64,000 bases of DNA from a virus (IMGVR_UViG_3300039140_000101:27927-91926); one strand, 5' to 3'. Shown: positions 225 to 28,708, numbered from the stretch's first letter. Notes: generated from the sequence alone by a model not told the origin. A program made the numbers and translations.

Positions 225-1199
225 ATGATTACTTACGATGAAATGACAATAGACAGTACCGGCGCATTTTTGATTGGTGAGCTGGAAAGACTGGATCAGA
301 AACTGCACGAGCCGTTGGTTGCTGTAACGTGGACACGGGACATTGATCTTCGTGAAGATGTTACGATTGCTGATGAAGCGTCCAGCTTTACCAATTCAGC
401 GTTTGCCGCAGCAGGGTCAATGAATTCTTCTGGTAAGAATTTCGTTGGCAAGAACAGTAATGCGATTGCAGGTATTGCTCTGGATATTGGCAAGACCTCC
501 CAGCCTTTGTATCTTTGGGCAATGGAAATCGGCTACACGATTCCTGAACTGCTTTCCGCACAGCAGTTGGGTCGTCCGGTCGATGAACAGAAGTTCAAGG
601 GTATGCAGTTGAAACATCAGATGGACATTGACGAAATGGTTTACATTGGTGACACCGTTGTCGGTAAAGAAGGATTGCTCAATTCTTCTCTGGTCACCGC
701 CGGATTCGTTGATCCAGGTGTTTCCACCACGACCCAGTGGACAACCAAGACCGCTGATGAAATTCTGGAAGATGTAAATACGCTGATTCAGGAATGCTGG
801 CAGTCCGCTGGTTATGCGATTTGCCCGAGCAAGCTTCTGCTTCCTCCTGCTCAGTTCGCATACATCACCAGCCAGAAAGTATCCACCGCTGGTAACGTTT
901 CCATCCTGACCTTCTTGGAAGATAATTCCATTTCCCTGAAGATCAATGGTAAGAAACTCGACATTCAGCCCTGCAAATGGCTGACTGGTCGTGGTGTTGC
1001 CGCAGGTTCTCCTTCAACTGCAACTGACCGCATGGTTTGTTACACGCAGGATGTTGACAGGGTACGTTACCCGATGGTTCCTCTTCAGAGGACTCCGTTG
1101 GAATACCGCAGCCTGTATCAGTTGACCACATATTTCGGTCGTTTGGGTTGTTTGGAGTTTGTGTATCCCGAAACTTTGCGATACGCTGACGGAATCTAA
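225..1199 (+). CDS. Major capsid protein (DUF2184-like, HK97 fold)
   Basis: GAFLIGELERLD N-terminus, DRMVCY and YPETLRYADGI C-terminus typical of this family; GGAGG SD. Confidence 0.9.
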   Translation: MITYDEMTIDSTGAFLIGELERLDQKLHEPLVAVTWTRDIDLREDVTIADEASSFTNSAFAAAGSMNSSGKNFVGKNSNAIAGIALDIGKTSQPLYLWAMEIGYTIPELLSAQQLGRPVDEQKFKGMQLKHQMDIDEMVYIGDTVVGKEGLLNSSLVTAGFVDPGVSTTTQWTTKTADEILEDVNTLIQECWQSAGYAICPSKLLLPPAQFAYITSQKVSTAGNVSILTFLEDNSISLKINGKKLDIQPCKWLTGRGVAAGSPSTATDRMVCYTQDVDRVRYPMVPLQRTPLEYRSLYQLTTYFGRLGCLEFVYPETLRYADGI

Positions 1200-1224
1200 A
1201 TGATTTCAATAGGTTACGAGGTTT

Positions 1225-1998
1225 ATGATGATAATTTATAAGATTGAAAACAATATTAACGGTAAAATTTACATTGGTCTTACTACAAAAGACCTGAGTA
1301 AAAGAATTGCCGGACATATTGCAGAAAACAAATCTTATATTCAGAAAGCCTTGAATAAGTATGGTTTGCAATCGTTTGCCGTGTCCGTCATTGATAGTGC
1401 TGAGTCCAGAGAAATTCTCTGTGAAAAGGAACGATACTGGATTCAGCACTACAATTGTAAAGCACCTAATGGATACAATCTTACTGATGGTGGTGATGGT
1501 TTGATAAATCCTTCAAAGGTTGTAAGGAAGAAAATTTCCAGAACCTTAAAGAAGAAACATATTGTCACCAAAGGGTTTACTGGAAGAAATCACACTGAAG
1601 AGTCAAAAGAACAAATTGGTAAAAGTTCAAAAAGGGTATGGAGTGATTCAAAATTCAGAAAGAAAATGAGTAAGATTCATAAAGGGAAAGTGATTTCTGA
1701 AGAGCAAAAACAAAAGATCAGTAAGGCAAATAAAGGGAAGTTGAAAGGTCGTATTCCGTGGAACAAAGGACGAAAGATGTCTTTAGTTGTCGGGTATGTT
1801 AATCCTATGAAAGGAAAGAAACGACTTGATTTGTCAGAAAGAAATAAGTTGAATAAAGGAAGAAAAGCATCAGAAGAAACCAAAAGAAAAATGAGTATGG
1901 TAAGTAAAGGAAAGTCAAAAACAAAAGAGCATATTTTACATATTGCTGAAGCAAAAGCTCGGGAAAAAGGAATTTATTTAGCTGTCAGCAATCAATAA
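1225..1998 (+). CDS. Free-standing GIY-YIG homing endonuclease with NUMOD3 repeats
   Basis: IIYKIEN..KIYIG, E..WI, GYNLTDGG; HTEESKEQI/SEETKRKMS repeats. Confidence 0.9.
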   Translation: MMIIYKIENNINGKIYIGLTTKDLSKRIAGHIAENKSYIQKALNKYGLQSFAVSVIDSAESREILCEKERYWIQHYNCKAPNGYNLTDGGDGLINPSKVVRKKISRTLKKKHIVTKGFTGRNHTEESKEQIGKSSKRVWSDSKFRKKMSKIHKGKVISEEQKQKISKANKGKLKGRIPWNKGRKMSLVVGYVNPMKGKKRLDLSERNKLNKGRKASEETKRKMSMVSKGKSKTKEHILHIAEAKAREKGIYLAVSNQ

Positions 1999-2019
1999 AA
2001 AGAGAGGAAGGTAAAGATT

Positions 2020-2421
2020 ATGTTAGTGGAAATCGAAGTGAAAAGACCTGTGGCAATCCCCGGAGATGGGAAAAGCAGAGTTATTGATTTGAAAGTTGGA
2101 ATCAATAGCATTGATGATTCCTTATTCAATCACTGGTTCGTCAAGGGATTGGTTGAAAGTGGAGCAATCGGTTTACTGAAAAGGAAAACTCATAACTTTA
2201 AATCACTGGATCAGATTGCAGAAGAAAAGAAACAGAAGATTCTTGCAGAAAAGAAATCTGTCGAAGAGAAGAAAGAACCAGTGGTATTTGCTACTCACGC
2301 AACGATGGCACCTGTGGGGACTGTCCTTGATCAAGAAGAGAAGAAAGAGGAAGTTACGGTGGTTAAAACATCGAAAGCCAAAGAAGAAAAACCAAAAGTG
2401 GTCAGACGTAAAAGGGTATAA
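2020..2421 (+). CDS. Hypothetical head-module protein
   Basis: ORF with SD; HWFVK motif; position between capsid and adaptor. Confidence 0.6.
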   Translation: MLVEIEVKRPVAIPGDGKSRVIDLKVGINSIDDSLFNHWFVKGLVESGAIGLLKRKTHNFKSLDQIAEEKKQKILAEKKSVEEKKEPVVFATHATMAPVGTVLDQEEKKEEVTVVKTSKAKEEKPKVVRRKRV

Positions 2422-2424
2422 CTT

Positions 2425-2826
2425 ATGAGCATAACAATGGACATATCGGCATTCAGGCTTGCATTCCCAGAGTTTGCAGATGAAGTAAAGTATCCGGATG
2501 CCATGATAACTTTCTGGTCAAGTGCTGGATTAATACTCCTGAATGAAGCACGATGGGGTGATTTACTGACGCATGGATTGTGGCTTTATGTAGCACATAA
2601 CATCACGCTTGGGTCTGCCGATATGTCCGCAGGAGATTCAGGCGTGGCTCCGGGTGCTGGTGTCGGCGGGGTGGTTTCAGGCAAAGGAGTGGATGGTGTA
2701 TCAATTAATTATGATACCAATTCCATAACTCTTGAAGGAGCTGGAAATTATAACTCTACAAAATACGGTCGTGAATTCTGGCAACTGGCGATGATTGTTG
2801 GTATGGGAGGTCAACAATTAAGATGA
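2425..2826 (+). CDS. Head-tail adaptor (DUF4054-like)
   Basis: FRLAFPEF..YPD, LYVAH, TKYGREF motifs. Confidence 0.85.
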   Translation: MSITMDISAFRLAFPEFADEVKYPDAMITFWSSAGLILLNEARWGDLLTHGLWLYVAHNITLGSADMSAGDSGVAPGAGVGGVVSGKGVDGVSINYDTNSITLEGAGNYNSTKYGREFWQLAMIVGMGGQQLR

Positions 2827-3467
2827 CAACCCGCTTGCTTGTGAGTATAAAAGAGTACGCCGGAGCTTTTGAAGAGGGCTTTAAGACCAAGATCAATATC
2901 AAAGAAATTGATAAGATGATCAAGGACCAAAAAGCAATTGATAAGGAAAGGAAACTTCTTGAAGACATAAAGAAGATTGCAGATATTGGTATTTATGTGG
3001 GCATCCCCGAAGAAAAGAATGTTCGAGAAAGCGGTGAAATGAATAATGCCACTTTGCTTTACATTCATACCAATGGTTCTGAAAAACGGAATTTGCCTCC
3101 TCGTCCATTGATTGAACCTGCTTTGGAAGCGAATGATGAAAAGATTGCAGCAGATTTAGCAGAGGTTTCGAGATTACTGTTGGAAGGGAATTATCAAGGT
3201 GCATTGAAAATGATGCGTACCACTGGCAAAGATGCCTTGAACATGATCACAGATTTCTATGATGATCCATCACAGAATCAGTGGCCTAGAAATCAGGATG
3301 CAACGGTAAGGGCAAAGATTAAGAAGAAATACAAGTCAAAGAAAAAGAGAAAAGAAGCGATGGAAGAGTATGCGGCAGGGGGAGAGGTTGATCAGGTATT
3401 GGTTGATACTGGTGCATTGAGGAGTTCGATAACCTATGTCATTGGTGATAAGGTGGAAGGCAAATGA
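2823..3467 (+). CDS. Neck/tail-completion morphogenesis protein
   Basis: VGIP, PPRPLIEP, LVDTGALRSSITY motifs. Confidence 0.75.
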   Translation: MTTRLLVSIKEYAGAFEEGFKTKINIKEIDKMIKDQKAIDKERKLLEDIKKIADIGIYVGIPEEKNVRESGEMNNATLLYIHTNGSEKRNLPPRPLIEPALEANDEKIAADLAEVSRLLLEGNYQGALKMMRTTGKDALNMITDFYDDPSQNQWPRNQDATVRAKIKKKYKSKKKRKEAMEEYAAGGEVDQVLVDTGALRSSITYVIGDKVEGK

Positions 3468-4152: not shown

Positions 4153-4752
4153 ATGGCAGACATAATTTTATCATTAAGTGAATTAAGAAAACTGTTCTAT
4201 GACTTGACTGTTGCAATGGTTGATTCAGTAACACAGGTCCGTATGTCATGGCCGACAGGTGGAGCACCTGCATTTGATATCAATGACAAGATGGCATTCA
4301 TTAGGATATCTGATGTTGCTTCGACATATCATGTTCCACAGGAATTGAAGTATGAACAAGTAGGTTCTCCAGAAGAGGGAAACATGCAGGTTCATTATAC
4401 ACGAACATTGAGAATTATGTGGGTGATGTATGGTTCAAATTCTTGGGATGATGCAGTTTCTTTGAGGACGAAAATCTTTTATCAGACAAATCATGATATA
4501 TTGGCAAGACAGAAGATTTATCTTATACCTAGTTTTGATCCTCCTAAAAGAGTGCCGGAATTGTTTGAAGGGTTATGGTACGAGAGGGTAGATATAACAA
4601 TGGACTTCTATGAAAAGATTTTAATCAATTATGCGGTTCCGTCTATCCTGACTGTGCCGTTGGTTGTTGTAGGTGATTCAGGAACAATTCATGATGGTAT
4701 AATAACTGAATCAACGATAGTGCGTGAAGGTGGTTTGATAATTAACAAATAA
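4153..4752 (+). CDS. Tail terminator/neck protein
   Basis: PELFEGLWYERVD motif; directly before sheath. Confidence 0.7.
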   Translation: MADIILSLSELRKLFYDLTVAMVDSVTQVRMSWPTGGAPAFDINDKMAFIRISDVASTYHVPQELKYEQVGSPEEGNMQVHYTRTLRIMWVMYGSNSWDDAVSLRTKIFYQTNHDILARQKIYLIPSFDPPKRVPELFEGLWYERVDITMDFYEKILINYAVPSILTVPLVVVGDSGTIHDGIITESTIVREGGLIINK

Positions 4753-4761
4753 AACTGTGAG

Positions 4762-5919
4762 GTGAAGATTATGGCAATACCTATTCCGGGAACATTAAGT
4801 TTGGACACCATTGTAGATGTTGAAGTGTTGATAAGTCCTTTGTCAGCACCGAGGTCAACTTTTAATCAGGGGCTGATCATCGGTTCGACAAATATTATTC
4901 CCACTTCAGAAAGAGTGAGAAAATATAATACCGCAGCAGAAGTTCTTGCAGATTTTGCATTGACTGATCCTGAATACATTGCGGCATCATTATATTTCTC
5001 ACAATCGCCTTCTCCTGAAATCCTTTGGATTGGTCGTCAGGAGCTTGGAGTTGAGTCAGTTGTGGAAGCATTGCAGGCTTGTCGTGCAGCGAACTTTGAA
5101 TGGTATATGGCAGTTGCTCTCAATGCAGTCTATGCAGATAATATTGCATGTGCCGCTTATATTGAATCGGCAACTCCTGCAAGCCTGTATGGATTTACAA
5201 CGGGGGATGCGGATTGTTTGACAGGCACGGCATCTCCTCCGGATATCTTCACTTATTTGAAGTCGCTGAATTACTCCCGAACCATTGGCCAGTATGCAAC
5301 GACACAAAGCGGAGTTTATCCCAATAACATTTATGCCATGTGTGCGATCATGGGCTATGCGATGGGACAGAATTCCGGTCTAGCAAATTCCACATTCACG
5401 CTGAAGTTCAAGCAGGAAATCGGCATCTCCATTGAACAACTGACCCCTTCCCAGATCAGCATCATTGAAGGCAATTACGGGAACTGTTACCTGTCTTATG
5501 GTAATTACTACACCATCTTTGAACAAGGCAAGATGAGCAACGGAAGTTTCTTTGATGAGAAGATCAATCTGGATATGCTAGTGAATAATCTCCAGTTGAC
5601 CATTATGGATTTGCTCTATCAGAATCCGAAAGTCCCGCAGACTGATGCAGGTGTCACCCAGTTGATTCAGTGCTGTAATGAAGCATGTGAGGAAGCAGTG
5701 CGAATCGGATTCCTTGGTCCCGGAGTTTGGAAGGGCGTGAACGTTTTAAATCTGTCCTATGATGATGTGTTGCCAAACGGTTATCTGGTTCAGGCAGAAT
5801 CACTGGCAGATCAATCACAGGCAGACAGGGAAGCCAGAGAATCTGTTCCGCTTTATGTGGCGATTAAAGAAGCAGGTGCAGTGCATTCAGTTTTAATCGG
5901 GGTGTATTTGAACAGATAA
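4762..5919 (+). CDS. Contractile tail sheath protein (DUF3383-like)
   Basis: PEYIAASLYFSQSP, TLKFKQE.G, KVPQTDAG, AGAVH motifs. Confidence 0.9.
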   Translation: MKIMAIPIPGTLSLDTIVDVEVLISPLSAPRSTFNQGLIIGSTNIIPTSERVRKYNTAAEVLADFALTDPEYIAASLYFSQSPSPEILWIGRQELGVESVVEALQACRAANFEWYMAVALNAVYADNIACAAYIESATPASLYGFTTGDADCLTGTASPPDIFTYLKSLNYSRTIGQYATTQSGVYPNNIYAMCAIMGYAMGQNSGLANSTFTLKFKQEIGISIEQLTPSQISIIEGNYGNCYLSYGNYYTIFEQGKMSNGSFFDEKINLDMLVNNLQLTIMDLLYQNPKVPQTDAGVTQLIQCCNEACEEAVRIGFLGPGVWKGVNVLNLSYDDVLPNGYLVQAESLADQSQADREARESVPLYVAIKEAGAVHSVLIGVYLNR

Positions 5920-5930
5920 GGGGTTACGAT

Positions 5931-6440
5931 ATGTTTGGTTTATCTGATCATACAACATACAGTTTTTTGGATATTTCTGGTTCGATGTTTCATCCAAAGA
6001 TCGGTCCATTTATCTTTACGGGAAATGGTGTTGGGCGATTGACAATTCAACCGACAGGGGAAAGAACTGAACATGATTATGCAACAGATGGTACAGTAAT
6101 AATCACAAAAGTGCCTCCTATTGGTGGAAAAATAATCATCCAGTGTCAACAGGTGAGTACCGTAAATAGTTGGCTGTTGTGGCTATACTCTATCATTTCA
6201 AGTCCTTTAGGAGACGATAATGACTGGGGGAGAATGGTGGTATTGATCAGGGATGTCCAGCATGGCACTCAGTATAATATTCGAGGGGTATCGTTTTCAA
6301 ATATCCCTGAAACTAATTATGCGGGGGTAGGCGAACATGTTATTTGGAGTTTGCCGTATGCTGCTATGCTGGTATTTCCGCCTCATCCGACTGGAGCAGG
6401 ACAATTATCATCAATTGCAAGAAGAATATTGGGCAGTTAA
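5931..6440 (+). CDS. Tail tube protein paralogue (DUF3277-like)
   Basis: HTTYSFLD...FTG.GVG; aligns with next ORF. Confidence 0.7.
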   Translation: MFGLSDHTTYSFLDISGSMFHPKIGPFIFTGNGVGRLTIQPTGERTEHDYATDGTVIITKVPPIGGKIIIQCQQVSTVNSWLLWLYSIISSPLGDDNDWGRMVVLIRDVQHGTQYNIRGVSFSNIPETNYAGVGEHVIWSLPYAAMLVFPPHPTGAGQLSSIARRILGS

Positions 6441-6470: not shown

Positions 6471-6908
6471 ATGGAACATACTACATACAGTTTTTTAGAT
6501 TTGACTGGTGCTTTGTCCCATGCTCAGTTGGGTAATTACATATTTACTGGGCAGGGAGTAGGAAGTGTAACGGTCGCTTATGCCACGGATAAATCAGCAC
6601 ATGATTTAGCGGCAGATGGTGTTGTAATGGTAAGTAAACTGGCAGGTAAACAAGGAACACTCACTATCGCCTGCCAGCAGACAAGTGCTTTGCACAAATG
6701 GTTGTTGAAGTCCTTAAACAAGTTGTTTGATTTACCAACATCTGAATGGGCGCAAATGTCTGCAACGTTGAGAAATACGTCCGATGGTACTTCTCATATT
6801 ATCACTGGAATTTCTTTTGGGAAACATCCTGATAAAGCCTATGCTGCAACAGGAGCACAGGTCACATGGACATTGTGGGCAGCGTTTATTGATTCCAATG
6901 TTTCATAA
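6471..6908 (+). CDS. Tail tube protein (DUF3277-like)
   Basis: TYSFLD, AADG.VMVS, QQTS motifs; strong SD; follows sheath. Confidence 0.85.
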   Translation: MEHTTYSFLDLTGALSHAQLGNYIFTGQGVGSVTVAYATDKSAHDLAADGVVMVSKLAGKQGTLTIACQQTSALHKWLLKSLNKLFDLPTSEWAQMSATLRNTSDGTSHIITGISFGKHPDKAYAATGAQVTWTLWAAFIDSNVS

Positions 6909-7560: not shown

Positions 7561-9737
7561 TGGATGCCGAAGTTTTTAAAAGCTATCTTATAAAATTAGG
7601 TGTGCAGGTTGACACCGCTGCCTTTGATAAAATGAAGCAGTTGTTGGGCGATCTTGAGAAGGCAATGGGAAAGAATGCCTCCTCTATGGGATTGCAAATG
7701 GTAAAAGGTGCCGGACTTGCTGTCGGTGCTTTAGCCATGATTGACGCTGCAATTGTCAAAACAGTAAAGGCAATTGCAGACGCCGATATGCAATACCAAT
7801 TACTTGGTCAGCGGATGTTTATGTCCACTGATGCAGCCAAAGCGTTTAAACAGGCAACTGACACATTAGGTAAATCCCTAGAAGATATTGCATGGAATAA
7901 AGAGTTAAAGGACAGATATGTTGACTTGGTTCAACAAGTCAATCAACTGAAGCTTCCAAAAGAATCGGCAGAGATGTTCAAGGGTGTTAGAGATATTGGC
8001 TTCCAATTTGACAGATTAAAGTTGGCATCAACACAAGCCCTAGAACATATGGCGTATAATTTGGTGCGAATCAATAAAGGGGAGATGTTTGATTTTAGAA
8101 CCCAATTGAGTTCATGGGTCGATGATTTTATAAAAAAGGTTCCAGAATACGGAAGGAAACTTGCAGAATGGCTACAACCTTTTATTAAAGTTACAAAAAG
8201 TGCAGGTAAAGCAATTATGCAATTGTGGGAGTTTATTCAACCCGGAATAGACAAATTAAAAGAACTTTGGGACAAACTAGATGGTATCCAAAAAATGGGT
8301 GCTGTTTTAGCAGTCACTCTCATTCCTCTTTTCTTGATTGGTTCTCCTTGGTTGCTTGGGTTGGCCGCAATTGGCGCAGCCCTGTTGCTCATAGATGACT
8401 ATATGCACTTTAAAGAAGGGAAGAAATCTCTTCCTCAATTGATTGCACTTTGGGCAACTTTACGTGCTGTGGTTGCATCAGTCCATTTTTATTTGGGTAA
8501 TATTGTAATTGCATTAGATCATATGTATCATTTCTTTTCGGGTAAAGCACATCCAAGTGGCATGTCGTGGTTCCAGCACACAAAGATGTTCAGTAAGGCA
8601 AGACTTAAAGAAATTAAGGAAGGATTATTTGATGCCAAAGAAAAATTGACTGAAGCAGCGGAAAGAGAAAACGCACCCGCTTTGAGAGAAGGAAAAGAGA
8701 AAGTAAAGTGGGAAAAGCAATATATTAAAACGATACAGGTAGTTGAAAAAGGAAGAACCCCTTCTCAAAAGGAAATAGATACGGCTTATAAAGAAGCGGT
8801 AAAACATGGAAGAGTTGCTCCAGAAGTAATTGGAAAGGACGAAACGCCTGTGGAGGCTAAAGGGGAAACAGCAAAACGTGGCAGGGACACTTCCAGTTCT
8901 GCGGTATCTGCTCCAGCCCATTCAGGTCTTACACAATCCGAAAAGAAGTTTTTGACTCAAATATCAAAAGGGGAAGGTACTTCTGAAGAGGAAGCGAGAA
9001 AGCACGGATATGCTACGGGGTATGATGTTACTTTAGGTTATGGAAGATATGCCAAAGAAGAAAAACCAGTTTCTGAAATGACTTTTAGAGAATTAAAAGA
9101 ACATCAAAATAAAATGCTTGCAAAGCAGCGTAGTTTGGGTCTGGGGAAAGACTCCTCAAGTGCTGCTGGGAAATATCAATTTGTAAGAGATACTCTGTTT
9201 GGTAAAAAGGGACAACAAGGTCTTTTGAAACAGGAAGGCATTTCTGAAAATGAAGTATTTTCCCCAGAAATGCAAGATCGTTTGGCACTAGCTTTAATTA
9301 AGGATGCTACCAAGAAATTTAAAACAGGTAGGATGAGTGCAGCAGAGTATCATAATATAGTATCTGGTCAGTGGGCTTCAGTTACTAAATATGGTGCTTC
9401 TGGTGGGTCATATAGGGGACAACGGGCACCAACAACAACCGCAGATTTGGCTCCAATATTTCAATCCTTGAAAAGGGAACCTGTACGGCCTCCAACTTTT
9501 GCTAAAACAAAACAATCTGGTCCTGAATTTGCATCGTTACAAAATTCACCTCCTCCGGGGGCAATGCCAATTAGTACAGAAGGTGCTGCTGCCACTGCGC
9601 CTGTTTACAATGTGACCTCTGTTATTAATGCACAAACAAATGATCCGGCTGAATTGGCAAGGTTGGCAGCAATAGAAAATAAAAAAATGCTGGTTGCAAG
9701 AGAACAGGAAAAAGGAATAAAGAGAAGACAAGGATAG
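7560..9737 (+). CDS. Tape measure protein with lambda-lysozyme-like muralytic domain
   Basis: Helical N-terminus, TM segments, ISKGEG...SSAAGKYQF...QDRLA...QWAS. Confidence 0.85.
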   Translation: MDAEVFKSYLIKLGVQVDTAAFDKMKQLLGDLEKAMGKNASSMGLQMVKGAGLAVGALAMIDAAIVKTVKAIADADMQYQLLGQRMFMSTDAAKAFKQATDTLGKSLEDIAWNKELKDRYVDLVQQVNQLKLPKESAEMFKGVRDIGFQFDRLKLASTQALEHMAYNLVRINKGEMFDFRTQLSSWVDDFIKKVPEYGRKLAEWLQPFIKVTKSAGKAIMQLWEFIQPGIDKLKELWDKLDGIQKMGAVLAVTLIPLFLIGSPWLLGLAAIGAALLLIDDYMHFKEGKKSLPQLIALWATLRAVVASVHFYLGNIVIALDHMYHFFSGKAHPSGMSWFQHTKMFSKARLKEIKEGLFDAKEKLTEAAERENAPALREGKEKVKWEKQYIKTIQVVEKGRTPSQKEIDTAYKEAVKHGRVAPEVIGKDETPVEAKGETAKRGRDTSSSAVSAPAHSGLTQSEKKFLTQISKGEGTSEEEARKHGYATGYDVTLGYGRYAKEEKPVSEMTFRELKEHQNKMLAKQRSLGLGKDSSSAAGKYQFVRDTLFGKKGQQGLLKQEGISENEVFSPEMQDRLALALIKDATKKFKTGRMSAAEYHNIVSGQWASVTKYGASGGSYRGQRAPTTTADLAPIFQSLKREPVRPPTFAKTKQSGPEFASLQNSPPPGAMPISTEGAAATAPVYNVTSVINAQTNDPAELARLAAIENKKMLVAREQEKGIKRRQG

Positions 9738-9746
9738 GGGAATCAA

Positions 9747-16316: not shown

Positions 16317-16697
16317 GTGGAGAGTACCTGTAAAGGAAAAGAATGCTGGTTTTATTTATTGATCAAGGATTTGAGTGGAGAAAAATCTGAGAGTCTTGAT
16401 TTTCAGAACTGCCCCTTCTATGTCGAGATGATGTTCACTCCGACACCTATTGGTGGAAAAGTCGAAACTGCAAAAATAGTCAAAGATTGTTCTAACAAGC
16501 GAAGCCTTCTGATGTTGCTTGAAGACGTTTATCCTCGTCTGGCAGGGGTGCAGAAATCCAATGAGGAAATGCGGAATGCAAGCGCAGAAGCAAGGGAAAC
16601 AGTTAGAGAGGTTTTTAAAACTTTTGAAAGAATCGGTACAAGACCGGAATTGAAAACCTATGTGCCTCCGATTGAACTTGAAGGAAACAAAGAATGA
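16317..16697 (+). CDS. Cys-rich fibre-associated hypothetical protein
   Basis: C..ECWF...CPF...DCS; follows fibre gene. Confidence 0.55.
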   Translation: MESTCKGKECWFYLLIKDLSGEKSESLDFQNCPFYVEMMFTPTPIGGKVETAKIVKDCSNKRSLLMLLEDVYPRLAGVQKSNEEMRNASAEARETVREVFKTFERIGTRPELKTYVPPIELEGNKE

Positions 16698-17206
16698 ACG
16701 ATGTGATTGCCATCATAGGTCGTGCTCCTTGCTGGGCAATGGATTTTTTTTCTCTCCAGAGTTTTATCAGTAAGGACAAAATGGACATTATGGTAATAGG
16801 GAAGGATTGTGAGTATGCAGGTCATATTGATTTCTTTGCCACATATCACCCTGCCGATATTCCAGTGTATAAGGCAAAGAGAAAATTGGCAGGACAAAAT
16901 ACGGATTATAAAATTGTCTGCCATGTGAATGAAAAAGATAAACCTGTTGATTTGTTATTTCGTTATGAACATCCTTCCGGTTCAAGTGCATTATTAGGAA
17001 CACAGGCAGCAATTTATTCAGGGTATAAAAAGATTGTTTTGTGTGGATGTCCATTGGAAGGAGTGAACGAGCAGAATTACTCATACACTTCTTTCCAAAA
17101 AGGATGGGTGAAGCATAAAGCAGAATTAGAAGATAAGGTCAGATCGATGAGTGGGTGGACGGCAAAATTCTTAGGGAAGTGTGATGAAGAATGGATAAAG
17201 ATATGA
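16694..17206 (+). CDS. Rossmann-like putative glycosyltransferase (GT29/Maf-like fold)
   Basis: IIGRAP, GSSAL, GYKKIVLCGCPL motifs. Confidence 0.45.
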   Translation: MNDVIAIIGRAPCWAMDFFSLQSFISKDKMDIMVIGKDCEYAGHIDFFATYHPADIPVYKAKRKLAGQNTDYKIVCHVNEKDKPVDLLFRYEHPSGSSALLGTQAAIYSGYKKIVLCGCPLEGVNEQNYSYTSFQKGWVKHKAELEDKVRSMSGWTAKFLGKCDEEWIKI

Positions 17207-17856
17207 TACCGGAAAAGTTAAAGCCATTTATGGCACAAAGTTTTTACCAGACGTTTGACTTTCTGAATGAAGAACTGAAAGCCAGCAATAGTGCGGAGAA
17301 ATATGATTTGTCCAGACTGACTACATTTGATTTGGAAAATAAAAACATTCTGGATGTCGGATGCAATGCAGGTTATTTCATGTTCAAGCTTCTGGGAAAG
17401 AATCCGAACTGGATTATGGGAATTGATTCTCATAGACCATTCATTGATATTGCGAGACGAATCAATGAGGAATGTTTTCAGTCCACTAAATTGGACTTTC
17501 ATGTGGGAGATTTTTTTCAGTATAAGTTTCCTCTGAATAAGGCGTTTGATCTGATTTATTGCTTTTCCACATTCCATTATTTCTATGAACAACAGCAATT
17601 GTTCATAGACAAATGTTATGAGCTTTTGAGTAAAGATGGAATACTGCTGGTGGAAATTGAAGAGAGTCCAGATCAGGGAGAAGCTAAAATATTCAGTCCT
17701 CCAAGACCTGCTGATGGCAAATGTTATTTTTACCCGAATCCTGCGATGGTCAAGCAATGGACAAAGGGAATTTTTAAGATTGTGGACAAATATGTTTCCA
17801 CAAAACAAAATGGGTCAGTTTATGAAAGGCAGTTTTATGTTCTTAAAAAATTGTAA
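17191..17856 (+). CDS. Class I SAM-dependent methyltransferase
   Basis: ILDVGCNAGY motif I, GID, FDLIYC. Confidence 0.85.
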   Translation: MDKDMIPEKLKPFMAQSFYQTFDFLNEELKASNSAEKYDLSRLTTFDLENKNILDVGCNAGYFMFKLLGKNPNWIMGIDSHRPFIDIARRINEECFQSTKLDFHVGDFFQYKFPLNKAFDLIYCFSTFHYFYEQQQLFIDKCYELLSKDGILLVEIEESPDQGEAKIFSPPRPADGKCYFYPNPAMVKQWTKGIFKIVDKYVSTKQNGSVYERQFYVLKKL

Positions 17857-18283
17857 TATTGATCCTGCTCTTTGTATGAGGGTGCTTGAAGGAACATATG
17901 AAAAAACGATCCTTCTGATTCGTGGGGCAGGAGGATCAGGGAAATCAACTCTGGCGAACTTGATGCTCCATGATGAATTTTATTACCTGTCAATGGATAT
18001 GGCAATGATAGATCGGGAGTCAGCTATTGAAAGCATTTTGCAGTTTCTGAATGAGTATGGGGATAATGCGATTTATAATATTCATATACTGTCTGCTATT
18101 ATTGAAGAGAAATGTTTTAAAGAGTTTATGGATTTCTTTTTTCAAAAATATATTATTGAAAATGATAGCAGTAATATTATCCTTGATGGATATATTTTTA
18201 CATTTGCAAAAGTGTTTTCTTTATTCAAGGAAAAATGCCGTCAATGTGGGTACAGATTGTGGGATATAAAGAGGGAAGTGTAA
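17837..18283 (+). CDS. P-loop kinase
   Basis: GAGGSGKST Walker A, IILDG; probable ATG 17837. Confidence 0.7.
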   Translation: MFLKNCNIDPALCMRVLEGTYEKTILLIRGAGGSGKSTLANLMLHDEFYYLSMDMAMIDRESAIESILQFLNEYGDNAIYNIHILSAIIEEKCFKEFMDFFFQKYIIENDSSNIILDGYIFTFAKVFSLFKEKCRQCGYRLWDIKREV

Positions 18284-18999
18284 TGATTGGAATTGTAATA
18301 GCAACATACAAAAGACCGGACGATAAGACTCCTTTTTACCTGCGGAGATTATTGAGGACTATCTTCAGTCAGTCCTTTAAGGATTTTAAGGTTTATGCCA
18401 TTGGGGATAAATATGAAGATGATCAGGAATTTGTAAACACCATGCGGTGGTTTCCTGCAAATCAGGTTTATTTTAAGAACCTCCCTATCGCAATGGAACG
18501 AAGCAGATATTTTGATAATCCAGAAGCATTGTGGTGCGTAGGTGGTGTGAATGCTGTGAGTTTTGGAATAGATATTGCTCAAGCAGAAGGATGCAATTAC
18601 CTCTGTTTCCCTGACCATGATGATTATTGGGAACCAAATCATCTTGAGGAGATTGCAAAATTAATCAATGCTGAACAGGCAGATTGGATTTGCACCCGAT
18701 CTATTTATGGTAACAGAGTATTCCCTGAAAATATTACAGAAGATGAGATTCAACCATTTCTTCCGTTGGCAGGTGGAATTATCAAGTCATCAGTCTGTAT
18801 GAATACAAAAACAATTCCCTTGCGGTTCCGTGATACCTATAAGGAACTGCCTGTGGGAAGACCATCTGATGCTGATTTGTGGGACAGGTGCAAAGAGTGG
18901 ATACAGGAAAAAGGACTGAAAAGTTTTCTGATCAATAAAACGACCTGCGTTCACGCTGAAGAGGGATTTGTGTTGAACGGTGGGTTACATAATAAATAA
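18283..18999 (+). CDS. Glycosyltransferase family 2
   Basis: IVIATYKR, DHDDYWEPNHL, DADLW. Confidence 0.85.
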   Translation: MIGIVIATYKRPDDKTPFYLRRLLRTIFSQSFKDFKVYAIGDKYEDDQEFVNTMRWFPANQVYFKNLPIAMERSRYFDNPEALWCVGGVNAVSFGIDIAQAEGCNYLCFPDHDDYWEPNHLEEIAKLINAEQADWICTRSIYGNRVFPENITEDEIQPFLPLAGGIIKSSVCMNTKTIPLRFRDTYKELPVGRPSDADLWDRCKEWIQEKGLKSFLINKTTCVHAEEGFVLNGGLHNK

Positions 19000-19010
19000 A
19001 AAGGAAGAGT

Positions 19011-19562
19011 GTGATGGAATTTAAACAAGTGGGTAAAGGATGCAAGATAAGTGATTGGGCAAGGTTCTACAATCCTCATGTAATAGAATTTGGCAACAAT
19101 ACACGCATCGATGATTTTTGTATGCTGTCCGGTGGTGAAGGGATTAAAATTGGTGACTATGTTCACATTGCCTGTGGTACTTACTTGTACGGTGGTGGTG
19201 GAATTATTATTGAGGACTTTGTGGGGATTTCCACTCATGTAAACATCTGGTCACAGTCGGACGATTTCACAGGACACTCCATGTTCTGTCCACAGATTCC
19301 AGAAAAGTACAAACCTCGTTTGAGAAAAGCACAGGTGATTTTCCGAAAACAGGTTCTGGTCGGGTGTGGGGTTTCCATTTTGCCCGGAGTCACCCTTGGG
19401 GAAGGAAGCATAATCGGTGCTCATTCTCTGGTCACAAAAGATACCTTGCCGTGGTCAATCTATGCAGGAGTGCCAGCAAAGAAAATTGACAATGTAAGTC
19501 AGGATATGTTGAAATTGAGAGAACAGTTTCTTGAGGAGTACGATGGCAAACGGAGTGCATAA
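19011..19562 (+). CDS. Hexapeptide-repeat sugar acyltransferase
   Basis: LbetaH repeats, ILPGVTLGEGSIIGAHSLV, AGVPAK. Confidence 0.9.
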   Translation: MMEFKQVGKGCKISDWARFYNPHVIEFGNNTRIDDFCMLSGGEGIKIGDYVHIACGTYLYGGGGIIIEDFVGISTHVNIWSQSDDFTGHSMFCPQIPEKYKPRLRKAQVIFRKQVLVGCGVSILPGVTLGEGSIIGAHSLVTKDTLPWSIYAGVPAKKIDNVSQDMLKLREQFLEEYDGKRSA

Positions 19563-20205
19563 AGTAACAGAAGATTTTGAGGGTATGATTGCTTCATACA
19601 CCGGAGCAAAGTATGCCATTGCTGTGGATAATGCTTCCAATGCTTTGTATCTCTGTCTTTGCCACGAAAAGATAGAAGGAAAAGAAATTACGATTCCTGC
19701 AAGAACATATCCGTCAGTTCCATGTGAGATTATTCGTGCAGGGGGGAAAGTTAGATTCAAATCTGTGATTGGTACAACACTCAAGGGTGCTTATCCGCTT
19801 GAAGGAACGAGGGTGTGGGATTCAGCATTACGGTTCACTTGCAATATGTATATCCCAAATACTCTGATGTGTCTTTCTTTTACAGGACAATACAAGCATT
19901 TGAAACTAGGCAAAGGTGGAGCAATTATCACGGACGATTATCAGGCAATGCTGTGGTTGAAACGAGCAAGATTTTCTGGTAGGAGAGAATGCTCATACCA
20001 TACAGACAATTTAGACTTTATCGGGTTGAATTGTTATATGTCTCCACAGGTCGCTATACTTGGAATACATTTGATGCCACAATTTTATCACCCTATTACA
20101 GGAGATTTGATTCCGAATGAAGATTTAGAATTGCCCTATCCAGATTTGAGTCAGTTCCCGATTTATACAAAGGCAACAAGAATTGGTGGAAAGGAAGATC
20201 AGTAA
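19543..20205 (+). CDS. DegT/DnrJ-family sugar aminotransferase (short)
   Basis: FEGMIASYTGAKYAIAV..AL, DSA, SF...KHL..GKGG. Confidence 0.8.
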   Translation: MANGVHKVTEDFEGMIASYTGAKYAIAVDNASNALYLCLCHEKIEGKEITIPARTYPSVPCEIIRAGGKVRFKSVIGTTLKGAYPLEGTRVWDSALRFTCNMYIPNTLMCLSFTGQYKHLKLGKGGAIITDDYQAMLWLKRARFSGRRECSYHTDNLDFIGLNCYMSPQVAILGIHLMPQFYHPITGDLIPNEDLELPYPDLSQFPIYTKATRIGGKEDQ

Positions 20206-20208
20206 GAA

Positions 20209-20943
20209 ATGATAGTGGAAGATGTTATAACTGGGGTGACCGTTAGCTGGAATTCTGTTGATCTGGTGAAAAAATCCATCGGGTCAATCAGGGAATTTCA
20301 TCCAGAGATGCAGATTATCATTGTGGACGGTTCACCAAAAGATTCTGATTGCAAAAGTTATGTTCGATATCTGCCGACCATTGATGAAAACATAACGGCA
20401 ATCCTTGTGGAGCATAATATTGGTCATGGTCTGGGAATGAATCTGGGGATCAAATATGTTGAAACACCTTATGTCCTTTTCTTTGATACGGACATTGTGA
20501 TGGTCAAGTCACCATTGCAGGGGATGCTGGACATGATGGAAGATGATACATTTGGTGTTGGATATTCTGAAATCGTAGCACCAGATGGTCACGATTATGG
20601 AGTACTCCCAAAGCATGAGAAAAACAATGATCCAAAAGTTCGATATCTGCATCCTTATTTTCAACTGGTGCAGGTAAAGGAATATCATAAATATAAACCC
20701 TATTGTCACCACGGTGCTCCATGCATTTCCGCAATGTGGGATATTCACAAAAAAGGTTTATCGGATAAAGTGTTGAAAGAATTTTCTGGACTTGGACATA
20801 CAAAGGGTCGTGGTGCTTCTTGGGTTCCGTGTGCAGGAGAATGGGTTTTGCATGATGTAGAACACTTCGGTAGGACAGGACGTATGCGTGAAGCAATGGG
20901 TCTTCCTCATATAGAGGGAAAGTGGGACACAAGTTATGTTTAA
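20209..20943 (+). CDS. Glycosyltransferase family 2
   Basis: IIIVDGS, NIGHGLGMN, FFDTD. Confidence 0.8.
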   Translation: MIVEDVITGVTVSWNSVDLVKKSIGSIREFHPEMQIIIVDGSPKDSDCKSYVRYLPTIDENITAILVEHNIGHGLGMNLGIKYVETPYVLFFDTDIVMVKSPLQGMLDMMEDDTFGVGYSEIVAPDGHDYGVLPKHEKNNDPKVRYLHPYFQLVQVKEYHKYKPYCHHGAPCISAMWDIHKKGLSDKVLKEFSGLGHTKGRGASWVPCAGEWVLHDVEHFGRTGRMREAMGLPHIEGKWDTSYV

Positions 20944-21751
20944 TAATTTTACTGTGATTACTGCAACTGGAGATAGACCTGATTGTTTTTCGCTTCTGAA
21001 AAAGTGGATGAATGCACAGACTTGTCAACCTGCAAATTGGGTGATCGTGGACGATGGAAAAAATGCAATGCTGGAATCAGAATATAATGATCTGCCTAAA
21101 TATGCGACTTTGTTGCGGAGAAATCCAAGACCGGATGACCCGAAGCACACATTGAATATTAACCTGATGGCATCATTGCCTTATGTGACAGGGGATTTCA
21201 TAATTTTCTTTGAGGACGATGAATATTATGCACCGGAATATTTGGCAACGATGTCTAATTATTTGAAGGAGTATGAAGTGGTGGGGATTTGTCGGTCAAG
21301 ATACTATCATCTCCCTACTTACAAATATTATGTGCATCCGAATTATGACCATGCAAGTTTAGCACAGACGGGATTCAGGACAAGTTTTATAGACACATTT
21401 AAAAATCTGTTAAATGGTGATCCTTTTATTGATATGCGGATATGGGCTACAGTTGGCAATAAGAATGAATTGCTTTGGGGTAAAGCAAAATTCAGGACGA
21501 AAGGCAGGGAGATTAACGGCAAAAGAGGGTATCTTTTTGATGATGCCATTGGTGACCGTTACATTTATGTTGGCATGAAGGGATTGAAGGGCAGAGAAGG
21601 AATCGGAAGTGGACATAAAGGCATGGGTGCTTATGATGCTGACCAATCTGTTTTGAAAAAATGGATACCAATTCCAGATCATTTTCGGTGTTATATGGAA
21701 CTGGCAAATACCATTTCAATTCCAGTTCCAGCAAACAAAAGACCGAAATGA
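20936..21751 (+). CDS. Glycosyltransferase family 2
   Basis: TVITATGDRP, WVIVDDG, FEDDEYY. Confidence 0.8.
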   Translation: MFNNFTVITATGDRPDCFSLLKKWMNAQTCQPANWVIVDDGKNAMLESEYNDLPKYATLLRRNPRPDDPKHTLNINLMASLPYVTGDFIIFFEDDEYYAPEYLATMSNYLKEYEVVGICRSRYYHLPTYKYYVHPNYDHASLAQTGFRTSFIDTFKNLLNGDPFIDMRIWATVGNKNELLWGKAKFRTKGREINGKRGYLFDDAIGDRYIYVGMKGLKGREGIGSGHKGMGAYDADQSVLKKWIPIPDHFRCYMELANTISIPVPANKRPK

Positions 21752-21919
21752 ATGATGACCATGAAAGAAAAGGAACTGCTTTTATTCCTGATGAGGTGAG
21801 TATGAATCTTATGGATGCGTGGTGGGCATGGTATCAATGGTATGTCAATACTTTGTATGAGTGGAAAAATATTGTAAGGGATTTGGATTACCTTTTCCAA
21901 AATAAAAAGGCTGATAAAC

Positions 21920-22177
21920 ATGACTGATGAAACTAAAAACGGATGGAATGAATGGGCAAAAAAGGTTTTGACCGACATTGAACGGTTAGACAAAGAGCAG
22001 GAATCCATTTATACTCGTGTGGATAAAAGTTACAAAGAACTACAGGAGTCCATCAACTGTTTGCGAGTGGAAGTTGCAGTGATTAAAACCAAGGCAGGAA
22101 TTTATGGTGCTATCTGGGGTGCGATTGTTGGGATGATTACAACGGTCATTGCTGCTGCTATCATTAAGCACATTTGA
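21920..22177 (+). CDS. Small coiled-coil membrane protein, putative holin/antiholin
   Basis: Coiled coil plus C-terminal TM helix upstream of endolysin. Confidence 0.5.
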   Translation: MTDETKNGWNEWAKKVLTDIERLDKEQESIYTRVDKSYKELQESINCLRVEVAVIKTKAGIYGAIWGAIVGMITTVIAAAIIKHI

Positions 22178-22185
22178 GGTTTGCT

Positions 22186-22608
22186 ATGGACAAGAAAGAA
22201 TTATCTTTAAGGGAACTGACCGAAGCATTGACTTATCGGGATATGATCAAGCAGGAGAATGAACGTAACTTTCAGGATATGTTCTTCCTCAACCCTATTG
22301 CAATGATCATTACGCAGATAGATGGGACGATCGTTAAGATCAATGAGGCAACAACCAGGATCATGGGATATTCAAAAGATGATCTGTACGGAACAAATGT
22401 TTTAAACGTCTATGTGAACAAAGAAGAGAGAAAGGAAATAATAGATGTCTTGAAAAAGGACAGGTGTCTTTTGCATCATCCGATCCTGTTTTATCACAAA
22501 GACGGTCATCCAGTTCCCTGTATCATGTCGAGCAAGATTATTCAGATCAAGGGCGAGGATCATATTTTAAGTGTTTTGTTTGACGTTTCAATGGGAGAAA
22601 TAAAATGA
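22186..22608 (+). CDS. Stand-alone PAS-domain protein
   Basis: NPIAMIITQIDGTIVKINEA...MGYSKDDLYG...HKDG PAS/PAC pattern. Confidence 0.8.
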   Translation: MDKKELSLRELTEALTYRDMIKQENERNFQDMFFLNPIAMIITQIDGTIVKINEATTRIMGYSKDDLYGTNVLNVYVNKEERKEIIDVLKKDRCLLHHPILFYHKDGHPVPCIMSSKIIQIKGEDHILSVLFDVSMGEIK

Positions 22609-24082: not shown

Positions 24083-24122
24083 TCGGATTAAGGTGCTGAA
24101 AAAATAACAAGGAGGGATTATT

Positions 24123-24775: not shown

Positions 24776-24787
24776 GAGGAATGAAAA

Positions 24788-25862: not shown

Positions 25863-26018
25863 TGAAAGAAAAGGTCAATCCAGAAGATTTGCAATGCTGT
25901 GGCAACTGCATGGAGTTTTTGACCTGTGGGAAGTATGATGAATCCTACGAATGGTGCAAGTCATGGCAATGGGATTCCATGACTCAATCCAAAAGGGAGA
26001 AAGAGAGGACAGGGGACG

Positions 26019-26603
26019 ATGAAGACTAAAATCATTGCAGGAGTGATTATTGTACTTCTTTCTATTGCATTAATGTCTGCTGTTTATGCGTGGTATAAGG
26101 AACGTAGCAAACCACCTGTCAGTAAGACGGAATATATTGAAGTGGAAAAGATAAAAGAGGTGGAGAAAATCAAAAAGGTGGAAGTGCCGATTGAAAAAAT
26201 AGTAACGATAGAAAAAATAAAACTCGTGGAGAAGGTGAAGATGCCAGATTGGTTTGTTCAAAATGCGGATGAACAGGCTATTGCATCCGGTGTAGCTCCC
26301 TCTCATACTGAAAAAACAAATGTGATTTGCACGGTCAACACGAAAACCGGAGTAGGCAATCTGGTGATGAAACAGGAACCGCAGAAATTTATGGGGTTGC
26401 CGAATGAAAAGCAAATATATGCGAAGGCTGGATATAGCACGAATAAAGAGACACAAGTTACCATTGGTGCAGATTGGAAATTCCTGCGTATCGGGAAGAT
26501 CAAAGTTGGTGTGTTTGGTGAGGGAAGAGCAAGCATTGGCAACGGTGAAACAGGGAATCGTTATCCGGTTGAAGCGGTTGCTGGGGTTATTGTGACGTAT
26601 TAA
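26019..26603 (+). CDS. Membrane-anchored protein, possible spanin-like
   Basis: N-terminal TM, EK-rich stalk, beta-rich C-terminus. Confidence 0.4.
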   Translation: MKTKIIAGVIIVLLSIALMSAVYAWYKERSKPPVSKTEYIEVEKIKEVEKIKKVEVPIEKIVTIEKIKLVEKVKMPDWFVQNADEQAIASGVAPSHTEKTNVICTVNTKTGVGNLVMKQEPQKFMGLPNEKQIYAKAGYSTNKETQVTIGADWKFLRIGKIKVGVFGEGRASIGNGETGNRYPVEAVAGVIVTY

Positions 26604-26626
26604 AACTTTTAAGAGGAGGAAATAAA

Positions 26627-27130
26627 ATGATCAACGAAAAATTAGGGTTTGAGGACAAGATTGCTTTTGGAATGGTTAAGGGAGTTTCGGAAAAATTGGG
26701 TTTGGAATACAATGTCCAGTTAACATTGCGTGATGCCGAAGGGAAGATCAAACAGTTTGAAGAAATCCATAATACTGTTCCGGCAGCAGGTCTGGCAGCA
26801 ATTATGGATCAGTTGCTTGATTCCCCTGCAATTGCCGTTCCGACAGCAATGGAAGTTGGCACAGGTTCCCCTGCGGCAACAAAGTTGGGTGCCTATATCG
26901 CTGGCTCAAGAACAGCATTATCGGCAAAGACAAGGGATGCAGCAGCAGTAGAAATGAAATGTACTTTTGCAGCAGGTGTTGGAACAGGGGCAATTACCGA
27001 AGCTGGTATTTTTTCTGTTGTAACAGAAGATACTCCTGAAATGTATTGCTCTGCTTCTTTTGCGGTCATCAACAAAGCAGCACCAGACAGTTTGGAAATT
27101 GTGTGGACGATAACTGCAACCACAACATAA
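26627..27130 (+). CDS. Virion structural protein (appendage/fibre module)
   Basis: HNTV, GTGAITEAGIF, F.VINK...DSLEIVWTI; strong SD. Confidence 0.6.
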   Translation: MINEKLGFEDKIAFGMVKGVSEKLGLEYNVQLTLRDAEGKIKQFEEIHNTVPAAGLAAIMDQLLDSPAIAVPTAMEVGTGSPAATKLGAYIAGSRTALSAKTRDAAAVEMKCTFAAGVGTGAITEAGIFSVVTEDTPEMYCSASFAVINKAAPDSLEIVWTITATTT

Positions 27131-27137
27131 GATTTTT

Positions 27138-27175
27138 GAAAGTTAGGGGATAATCATTTCCCCTAACTTTTCTTT
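27138..27175 (+). terminator. Intrinsic terminator-like hairpin
   Basis: AAAGTTAGGGG...CCCCTAACTTT then T-rich tract. Confidence 0.6.
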
Positions 27176-27187
27176 AGGGGAAAAAAG

Positions 27188-28708
27188 ATGACTACACGAA
27201 TTTACGGTTTTACTGCTTTGACAGGTGGTGGCACAGGAGCATTGGATAAATACCCTGAAGCTGGAATGCCAGCATTGGCTACAGATGATTATGCCTTTGG
27301 TCATGTCGCAGGGGTGTTTTACATTTACTGGTTCAATGGTGCATCTGCTGAAGCAGAAAGTCCTCCTGCTATCATTGCTCCTGATAGTGGTTCAGGTAGA
27401 TGGATACTGAAAGGATTTTCATTTGCTCATAATGATCTCGCAAGTATTGATGGGGGTAATGTTTCACCAGAAGAATATTACCATTTATCATCTGCTGATT
27501 ATAATACTATTAATACAGCACTTGCACAGTCTATTTTAGCCAATCCAACAGGAGGTGCTGCTCCAATTACAAATTTGACCGTAGCCGAGCAGACACTTGT
27601 TGGCAGAATTACTGGTGGGAATGTAGATGCTCTGTCGGTGGTGCAGGTAAAGGCATTACTCGCCATTGTTTCCGATACCGCTTATGCAGCTTCATGGGAT
27701 GGCGTGACTGATGTAGCTCCGAGTAAAAATACTGTTTATGACGAGCTTTATACCCGACCAAGACGTAATGCTATTATCAATGGGAATATGTCTGTGTGGC
27801 AGAGAGGAACAAGTTTTACGAGTGCGACAATTCCTGCAAATAGGGATGATGTTTACCTGATGGACAGATGGACGTTATTATCAGATGGCAATGACATTGT
27901 AGATGTTTCGCAAGTAACAACACCCGTACCTGTTGGTGCATATAGTGCCGCCTGTTTTGATATTGAAACAGAAGATAAAAAATGGGGCATTATCCAAATT
28001 CTTGAGGCCAAAGATGCCGCAAGTTTCATCGGTGGAACGGTATCCCTATCTTTTAAGGCACGAAGGGGAGCAAGCGATACATCTACAAAACTCCGTGCCG
28101 CTGTTTTGTCATGGAGTTCAACAGCAGATGCAGTAACATCAGATGTTGTCAATGCGTGGGGAGATGAAGGAACGAACCCTACCTTGGTGGCCAACTGGAC
28201 ATTTGAGAATGTTCCCGCCGCCCTTACAGAATTAACAGATGACTATCAGACGTTTAAAATTGAAGGCATTGCCATTGATACGGCCAGCACGACAAACATT
28301 GCGGTGCTTATCTGGTCGGATGACAAGACAAACGCTGTCGGTGATCTTGTTTATATTACAGGCGTTCAATTGGAACTCGGTTCAACTGCAACTGAATTTG
28401 AATACAGACCTTACCAAGAAGAAGAAAGACTCTGTACGCGATATGCTTGGAAGTTAACAGCCGATACACTTGGCGTTGCGCTGAATGTTAACGCCGCTAC
28501 GTCTTCTACTTTGTACTTTCCAACCCCGATGCGGGCAACACCGTCAATGTCTGGACAGTCGTTTACTGTAAACACTGGGAATAACGGGACACCGGCTTTG
28601 TATGCTCCATTGTCAACAAATAAGGCCGTCTATGTTTATAACTCTGATGGCAACTGGACAGTCTCCGCAGCTGTTTCATTGACCGCTTTATTTACTTCAG
28701 AGTTATAG
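27188..28708 (+). CDS. Second tail fibre/receptor-binding protein with carbohydrate-binding-like domain
   Basis: RNAIINGNMSVWQRGT, DRW, ITGVQLELGSTATEFEYRP..E..LC.RY, MRATPS. Confidence 0.75.
   Translation: MTTRIYGFTALTGGGTGALDKYPEAGMPALATDDYAFGHVAGVFYIYWFNGASAEAESPPAIIAPDSGSGRWILKGFSFAHNDLASIDGGNVSPEEYYHLSSADYNTINTALAQSILANPTGGAAPITNLTVAEQTLVGRITGGNVDALSVVQVKALLAIVSDTAYAASWDGVTDVAPSKNTVYDELYTRPRRNAIINGNMSVWQRGTSFTSATIPANRDDVYLMDRWTLLSDGNDIVDVSQVTTPVPVGAYSAACFDIETEDKKWGIIQILEAKDAASFIGGTVSLSFKARRGASDTSTKLRAAVLSWSSTADAVTSDVVNAWGDEGTNPTLVANWTFENVPAALTELTDDYQTFKIEGIAIDTASTTNIAVLIWSDDKTNAVGDLVYITGVQLELGSTATEFEYRPYQEEERLCTRYAWKLTADTLGVALNVNAATSSTLYFPTPMRATPSMSGQSFTVNTGNNGTPALYAPLSTNKAVYVYNSDGNWTVSAAVSLTALFTSEL

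Follow-up and report, generated by a model that had tools for sequence, protein, structure and literature searches.

Ser-Pro motifs and a glycan gene cluster in the late region

The window analysed here, a stretch of 64,000 nucleotides, corresponds to bases 27927–91926 of an IMG/VR virus record (IMGVR_UViG_3300039140_000101) that is 91.9 kb long and complete. Its source is an uncultured contractile-tailed phage, kin of cyanophage Pam3, and the window covers the late region; a DNA-level search of cultured phages with the window found no similar phage. We analysed Gly-Ser-Pro (GSP) and other Ser-Pro motifs in loops of the virion proteins, together with a cluster of predicted glycan genes headed by a small protein of Maf/sialyltransferase fold, hereafter called mini-Maf. 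A first-pass annotation of the sequence had read [G/A/S]-S-P motifs as surface serine acceptor tags for the glycosyltransferases of this cluster.

The late region occupies the plus strand from 225 to 31495, the strand of all window features described below unless another is named, and encodes the capsid, a GIY-YIG homing endonuclease, a terminator-like protein, the sheath, the tape measure, a baseplate J-like protein, a wedge protein and fibres. The major capsid protein has the HK97 fold (225–1199; phrog_264, E 2e-82), with the cyanophage Pam3 capsid 8hdt as its nearest solved structure, and carries the loop VAAGSPSTAT, in which GSP lies at 1005–1013. A tail terminator-like protein (4153–4752; phrog_1973, phrog_7975) contains GSPEE (4363–4371), and the tail sheath (4762–5919; phrog_205) has four Ser-Pro pairs, including TASPPD (5233–5241). 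Six pairs are present in the baseplate J-like wedge protein (13134–14360; phrog_6), among them two GSPs (13539–13547 and 13875–13883) and SSPP (14271–14279), and four in the baseplate wedge/structural protein (14364–15356; phrog_587), with GSP at 14505–14513 and 14595–14603 and ASPP at 14991–14999. A virion-region protein to which no function was assigned (26627–27130; phrog_5417), and for which no homologue was found among the relatives examined, contains TGSPAA (26864–26872) and DSPAI, and a tail fibre (27188–28708; phrog_4492) contains ESPPA (27359–27367) and VSPEE (27464–27469).

All of the GSP, SPP and VSPEE copies listed in the first-pass annotation were recovered at their positions, and the proteins of the minus strand contain, as it had claimed, exactly one GSP (in 63202–63981). 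Its remark that codons differ between copies was true only in part, as five of the nine GSP copies read GGT-TCT-CC[T/A]. Two further copies had not been listed. The first, in the tape measure (8340–8348), lies inside the hydrophobic stretch TLIPLFLIGSPWLLGLAAIGAAL, is not conserved and is probably a chance copy rather than a surface loop. The second (VDGSPKD, 20329–20337) lies within the GT2 enzyme 20209–20943, where we take 'DGS' to be the usual GT2 nucleotide-binding motif, and we judge it to be an enzyme motif rather than an acceptor site; the homologue in relative G001 also has a GSP in its GT2 part (TWKGSPKEY), perhaps at the equivalent position. Both copies are very unlikely acceptor sites.

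The glycan cluster lies between fibre and lysis genes. Its first gene, previously unannotated, encodes mini-Maf (16694–17206, 170 residues), and the remainder (17191–21751) encodes an S-adenosylmethionine-dependent methyltransferase, a P-loop protein, a GT2 enzyme, a hexapeptide acyltransferase, a short DegT-like protein and two further GT2 enzymes. These assignments rest on Pfam matches and bear out the presence of a glycosyltransferase cluster; all three GT2 genes exceed the PF00535 cut-off of 23.3 bits (18235–18999, 35.2 bits; 20209–20943, 47.6 bits; 20936–21751, 31.3 bits). The DegT-like protein (19531–20205) has 224 residues and matches only positions 25–91 of the 360-position profile, a short form that is conserved, with 67% identity in G003 and 45% in L126.

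The AlphaFold model of mini-Maf was of high confidence (predicted local distance difference test, pLDDT, 95; predicted template modelling score, pTM, 0.90). The top Foldseek matches were the GT42 sialyltransferase Cst-II of Campylobacter jejuni (1ro7; probability 1.0, TMq 0.64) and the Maf enzyme 5mu5 (probability 0.99, TMq 0.58). Judged from the model, mini-Maf is a minimal version of the Maf-enzyme fold without the flanking domains. Its likeness to Cst-II (1ro7, 2x61), the best structural match, is one of overall fold: sequence identity is 13–14%, and Cst-II, an enzyme of some 290 residues, modifies lipo-oligosaccharide rather than protein.

A protein search returned 211 mini-Maf homologues at E<=0.001, and 201 relatives lie in viral contigs. 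The family is mostly 160–200 residues long, with a consensus starting IxGxAPC, which presumably resembles the GNGPS nucleotide-binding start of GT42/Maf enzymes. PF01973, the Maf family, was weakly matched by 5 of 40 aligned homologues (best E 7e-5), and a genome-wide search for it in G000–G003 found none. In about 70 loci the cluster is embedded in the block of virion genes, immediately following fibre genes or next to head/neck genes, and GT2-type genes almost always follow the mini-Maf gene. The family is common in uncultured phages and hardly represented in cultured phages, where the protein search gave a single distant match, in Paracoccus phage vB_PkoS_Pkon1. The gene concerned, p38 (L211:19950–20816), is annotated as hypothetical, encodes 288 residues with 28% identity and overlaps the end of the major capsid gene. 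In a complete 50.6-kb phage genome (G017:C1:21615–22675), two mini-Maf-like genes occur in tandem.

Ser-Pro loops and the mini-Maf gene among relatives

Counts of motifs were compared with expectations from composition or from a first-order Markov model and are given below as observed/expected. In the window's virion set of 26 proteins, Ser-Pro was found 30 times against 18.1 expected (P=0.005), and non-virion proteins were at expectation (7/6.1 and 18/17.2). Of the tube-like proteins, 5931–6440 has one Ser-Pro and 6471–6908 has none.

The capsid loop was followed in an alignment with 80 relatives, 35 of which share at least 70% identity and 44 of which are more distant. In all 35 closer relatives, the loop is a 7-residue insertion with an invariant G-S-P and variable flanks, whereas in the 44 distant ones it is short or different; the alignment therefore upholds the earlier proposal that the capsid copy is an insertion. 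According to the order of secondary-structure elements, the loop joins two strands in the late part of the A domain, with GSP at residue 261 of 324. By analogy with HK97/encapsulin topology, it is probably the loop near the capsomer centre. The capsid GSP loop was present in all seven records with a mini-Maf gene and in none of ten without it. The seven comprise four long or complete records with the loop and three found through the mini-Maf gene, one of these at only 66% capsid identity; six of the ten records lacking both loop and gene are at least 90% complete. In line with this distribution, GT2 and DegT homologues were found in G001–G003 and in 0/10 relatives without the capsid GSP loop.

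Similar patterns were observed at single sites of other outer proteins. The terminator-like site is GSP or VSP in four of five clade members and in no transferase-less relative, and the sheath Ser-Pro at residue 158 is a 2-residue insertion that G003 and G005 share and transferase-less relatives lack. In the J-like protein, an insertion found only in four mini-Maf-carrying phages, GSPxGxYY, starts with the site at residue 136, and the nearest relatives read GAP at the site of residue 248. The expectation that the motifs would prove to be insertions relative to transferase-less homologues hence held for several loops of the window. One conserved GSP, in the head-tail protein family, also occurs in relatives without transferases.

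Across the late blocks of six clade genomes, Ser-Pro was found at 204/155.4 and GSP at 37/11.8, whereas the remaining blocks gave 57/80.7 and 2/4.9, respectively. No such late-block contrast was seen in transferase-less relatives (157/154.6 and 14/14.7). Ser-Pro in the sheath family was 17/5.7 in the clade and 12/8.1 outside it, and in the wedge family (phrog_587) 12/5.9 and 3/6.7, respectively. Taken together, the capsid, terminator, sheath, J and wedge proteins reached 64/27.6 in the clade (about 2.3-fold) versus 32/35.2 in transferase-less relatives. In eight inner families the ratio was about 1 in both groups, and the clade's inner virion and replication proteins were not over-represented in Ser-Pro. 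Thr-Pro was equal in the clade and in transferase-less relatives over the 13 shared families. The outer and inner groups among these 13 families were defined after the numbers had been seen, and a paired sign test over all of them was not significant (8/13) because the effect is confined to the five outer proteins.

An unrelated capsid was found in 7 of the 10 long mini-Maf-carrying records. In six complete genomes of this kind, Ser-Pro was 1.23-fold over expectation overall and between 1.17- and 1.32-fold in every one. The proteins richest in Ser-Pro there were a phrog_644 protein of about 150 residues, the head decoration proteins and the protein just upstream of the mini-Maf gene; in about 30 loci, this upstream protein has a [G/A]SP insertion together with a tandem SPxSPVTY. 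Locus searches with baseplate J or GT2 alone returned few loci.

The phrog_644-like set comprised 80 loci (L233–L312), whose whole records were checked for the mini-Maf gene; 25 lacked it, and the positive control detected the gene in 5/5. In the tree of this family, the members with the gene fall into two distinct subclades (4.0 and 2.4 Ser-Pro per ~150 residues), both nested among relatives with 0–1. Relatives on the 25 gene-less records had 0–2 Ser-Pro, mostly 0. A 3-residue SPS(P) insertion occupies the same loop (…advl-SPSP-ev…) in both subclades and is absent in all gene-less relatives. Among the phrog_49-like head decoration proteins, the members with the gene group in a single clade, where DGSP replaces DG[AT]x and a 3-residue insertion creates TSPA; mean Ser-Pro was 2.7 in these members versus 0.33 in the others. 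In two members nested in this clade the serines have been lost: L319 reads GAPP and VPP, and L336 reads GATD and lacks the insertion. The contigs of both do not extend far enough to show presence or loss of the mini-Maf gene.

Ser-Pro is thus enriched and, at the level of correlation, enzyme-dependent in three lineages, which the exact GSP is not. The acceptor-tag idea of the first-pass annotation is supported in part, in that Ser-Pro loops track the mini-Maf gene, and loses its tripeptide: GSP is too narrow a unit, and [G/A/S]-S-P is best seen as a Ser-Pro in a small loop. The outer loops are built round Ser-Pro, with Gly, Ala or Ser as the usual preceding residue.

A possible O-glycosylation system and its alternatives

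Our preferred reading, to which we assign roughly even odds (about 0.5), is that the phage encodes an O-glycosylation system for which the Ser-Pro loops serve as acceptor sites. The analysis shows that the motifs exist and favour outer proteins, that mini-Maf is modelled with a Maf/sialyltransferase fold and that gene and Ser-Pro occur together in three lineages; modification of the serine, its nature as a sugar and the role of mini-Maf as the priming enzyme are what we infer. A small enzyme that glycosylates the loop serine would be the most economical mechanism, a view that we hold about as firmly as its opposite. More tentatively, the system may be a general, sequon-based one, in which a minimal 170-residue enzyme of Maf/GT42 fold reads the Ser-Pro loop and primes O-glycosylation of many outer virion proteins, and in which lineages that acquire the enzyme evolve such loops through small insertions or substitutions at fixed surface positions; this joint claim we would place somewhat short of even.

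In the infected cell, the 16694–17206 protein would recognise the loops on newly made virion proteins and add the first sugar to the serine. The three GT2 enzymes would then extend the glycan chain, and the products of the DegT-like, hexapeptide acyltransferase, methyltransferase and P-loop genes would make or decorate an N-acyl amino sugar. The sugar donor could be supplied by the host.

Several results weigh against the acceptor-site reading and are set out below with the explanations that they favour. Many of them concern the exact GSP and fit ordinary protein architecture combined with a motif picked after looking: turns and loops use Gly, Ser and Pro, Ser-Pro-Glu caps helices, and the excess would come from a post hoc tripeptide, from homologous sites counted repeatedly and from a background distorted by Gly-Pro depletion. 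We regard this explanation as unlikely, with a sizeable chance nonetheless of being right. In the window's virion proteins, GSP was observed 8 times against 1.4 expected from composition and against 2.6 under the first-order Markov model (P=0.005). It ranked 7th among all 8000 tripeptides, and an equally extreme tripeptide arose in 16% of shuffled proteomes. Since GSP was picked after looking and its family-wise P with all tripeptides ranked is ~0.16, the window alone gives a nominal excess, not proof, and GSP was rejected as a significant motif of the window; the enrichment in structural over non-structural proteins, which the first-pass annotation had expected, was likewise nominal and was lost after multiple-test correction.

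Among relatives, the exact GSP stood up only in part. Pooled over the clade, GSP was found 65 times against 25.6 expected (rank 5 of 8000), mostly from a few conserved sites in the capsid, terminator and head-tail proteins; with each protein family weighted once, it fell to 12.8/8.3, which is not significant. The pooled statistics were therefore rejected as proof of GSP, as the excess collapses under family weighting. The excess in 80 mini-Maf-carrying loci again came from conserved sites, with a non-significant family-weighted value of 26.1/21.2, and no excess was observed in the six complete gene-carrying genomes with unrelated capsids (23/21.1). After de-duplication at 50%, GSP (64/41.4) was no commoner than PSG (64) or GTP (50/33.8), and its site conservation was high, not exceptional (rank 82 of 1689).

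The same explanation is favoured by motifs that do not depend on the cluster. The HxxGSP of the head-tail family (2823–3467), where the window copy has GSE in place of the relatives' GSP, is conserved in phages with and without transferase genes, so that GSP can have a purely structural role. SPE and TPE exceed expectation whether or not a phage has the cluster, and Thr-Pro-Glu does so equally in transferase-less relatives. Ser/Thr-Pro-Glu is an ordinary helix-capping motif, and GSPEE, GSPEH and VSPEE presumably fit the helix-cap pattern. GGNCC is avoided across the window (23 copies against 126.6 +/- 9 expected, e.g., at 2924, 4236 and 5716), seemingly as an escape from a host restriction enzyme, and because of this avoidance the Gly-Pro dipeptide is depleted to 0.3–0.4 of expectation in the clade. 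Permutations of G, S and P were tried as a control for GSP and discarded as confounded, since the Gly-Pro depletion makes them misleading.

Ordinary Ser-Pro turns and helix caps nevertheless leave three features unexplained, namely the outer-protein bias, the specificity for serine and the dependence on the gene. Ser-Pro, not Thr-Pro, is raised only in the outer proteins of the transferase-bearing clade; SPS(P) was gained at the same loop in two gene-carrying phrog_644-like subclades, while ~45 relatives stay at 0–1 Ser-Pro; and the decoration protein changed from DG[AT]x to DGSP. Ordinary loop composition alone does not readily account for the link between Ser-Pro and the gene in three lineages, together with these single sites. 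Against the acceptor-site reading, the most exposed proteins have almost no Ser-Pro, with none at all in the fibres 15375–16289 and 29120–31495, and Pkon1, the only cultured phage with a mini-Maf homologue, has no GSP at all.

Every gene-to-motif link is a correlation, and, with only about three independent lineages, shared ancestry or shared hosts could give the pattern. The loops and the cluster could accordingly be markers of lineage or host with no enzyme-substrate tie, the cluster acting on the host envelope or on phage DNA and the Ser-Pro loops contributing to stability or to resistance against proteases in these shared hosts. This we consider improbable. It would be in line with the substrates for which phage glycosyltransferases are best known, namely DNA and host surface sugars (summarised in PMC12619734), and with the lack of a complete sugar-donor pathway in the genome, where only the short DegT-like protein and the hexapeptide acyltransferase are present. 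A NeuB-type synthase (PF03102) and a CMP-sugar (cytidine monophosphate-sugar) synthetase (PF02348) were absent from the complete genome in searches whose positive controls worked. Marker status is harder to reconcile with the position of the cluster inside the virion gene block in ~70 loci and with Ser-Pro changes at fixed virion-protein loops exactly in the gene-carrying members. Nor does any cluster protein have a Pfam match to a membrane, flippase or oligosaccharyltransferase family; the matches are to methyltransferase, P-loop, GT2, hexapeptide and DegT families only.

The small protein itself had no Pfam match in the window, and its Foldseek E-values were only 1e-3 to 3e-2. The Foldseek list also included SteA and the thiamin pyrophosphokinases 2omk and 3k94 (probability 0.96–0.99) beside the sialyltransferases, and PF01973 is named after a pterin pyrophosphokinase. 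As the fold is common to pyrophosphokinases (MptE, thiamin pyrophosphokinase), the serine could receive a phosphate-containing group; mini-Maf would then recognise the loops with an adduct other than a sugar, or the loops would be docking sites for an accessory protein. We give this only a slim chance, as sialyltransferases and Maf are the best structural matches and GT2-type genes almost always follow the mini-Maf gene.

With regard to known systems, the acceptor-site reading finds its closest parallel in the Maf flagellin O-glycosyltransferases (PF01973/DUF115; Magnetospirillum magneticum 5mu5), whose central domain has the same fold as the 16694–17206 protein. Maf is a cytoplasmic enzyme that adds sugar to Ser/Thr of a surface structural protein before assembly, a role that we propose for the phage protein. 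Differences are also evident: Maf has ~600 residues (5mu5, 632) with extra substrate-binding domains, compared with 170 in the window, and its substrate is flagellin, whereas the candidate substrates here are virion proteins. Maf uses CMP-activated nonulosonic acids, and the corresponding pathway accompanies it; the window phage has neither a NeuB-type nor a CMP-synthetase gene. To our knowledge, there is no agreed sequon for Maf.

We know of sugar coats on phage particles only in some mycobacteriophages, where they alter immune recognition. In mycobacteriophages of the Che8 type, phage-encoded glycosyltransferases decorate the phage's own capsid and tail proteins, with glycans at the C-termini of capsid and tail-tube subunits (Freeman et al. 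2023, as summarised in PMC12619734). Phage-encoded glycosyltransferases are common to that system and the window phage; a Maf-like enzyme does not feature in the summary of that system, host group and phage type differ, and the sites are C-terminal there, whereas the candidate sites in the window are internal loops distributed over at least five proteins. A full-text literature search found nothing on Ser-Pro/GSP tags or Maf-like genes in phages. If the acceptor-site reading is true, particle glycosylation would be common in environmental phages, a sequence rule would be available to predict glycosylated virion proteins, and mini-Maf with its loop would form a compact enzyme-and-tag pair for putting sugars on proteins.

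Other genes in and around the window

The genes upstream of the capsid encode a portal-topoisomerase fusion, a Mu F-like protein, an HNH protein, a DUF2213 protein and a cement protein, with no Maf gene adjoining the capsid among them. In the fusion, the portal (PF06381) and a C-terminal topoisomerase-IB-like domain (PF01028) share one 978-residue open reading frame (L131:5553–8489; G000 19553–22489), located upstream of the window. Just before this portal gene, L131:3652–5556 encodes a protein of 634 residues whose N-terminal domain is an inorganic pyrophosphatase (PF18823). The GIY-YIG homing endonuclease gene (1225–1998) lies directly 3' of the major capsid gene and has homologues, among the relatives examined, only in G004 (54% identity) and G009 (32%). 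Finally, a stand-alone PAS-domain protein (22174–22608) is encoded between a holin-like gene and an M15 endolysin gene.

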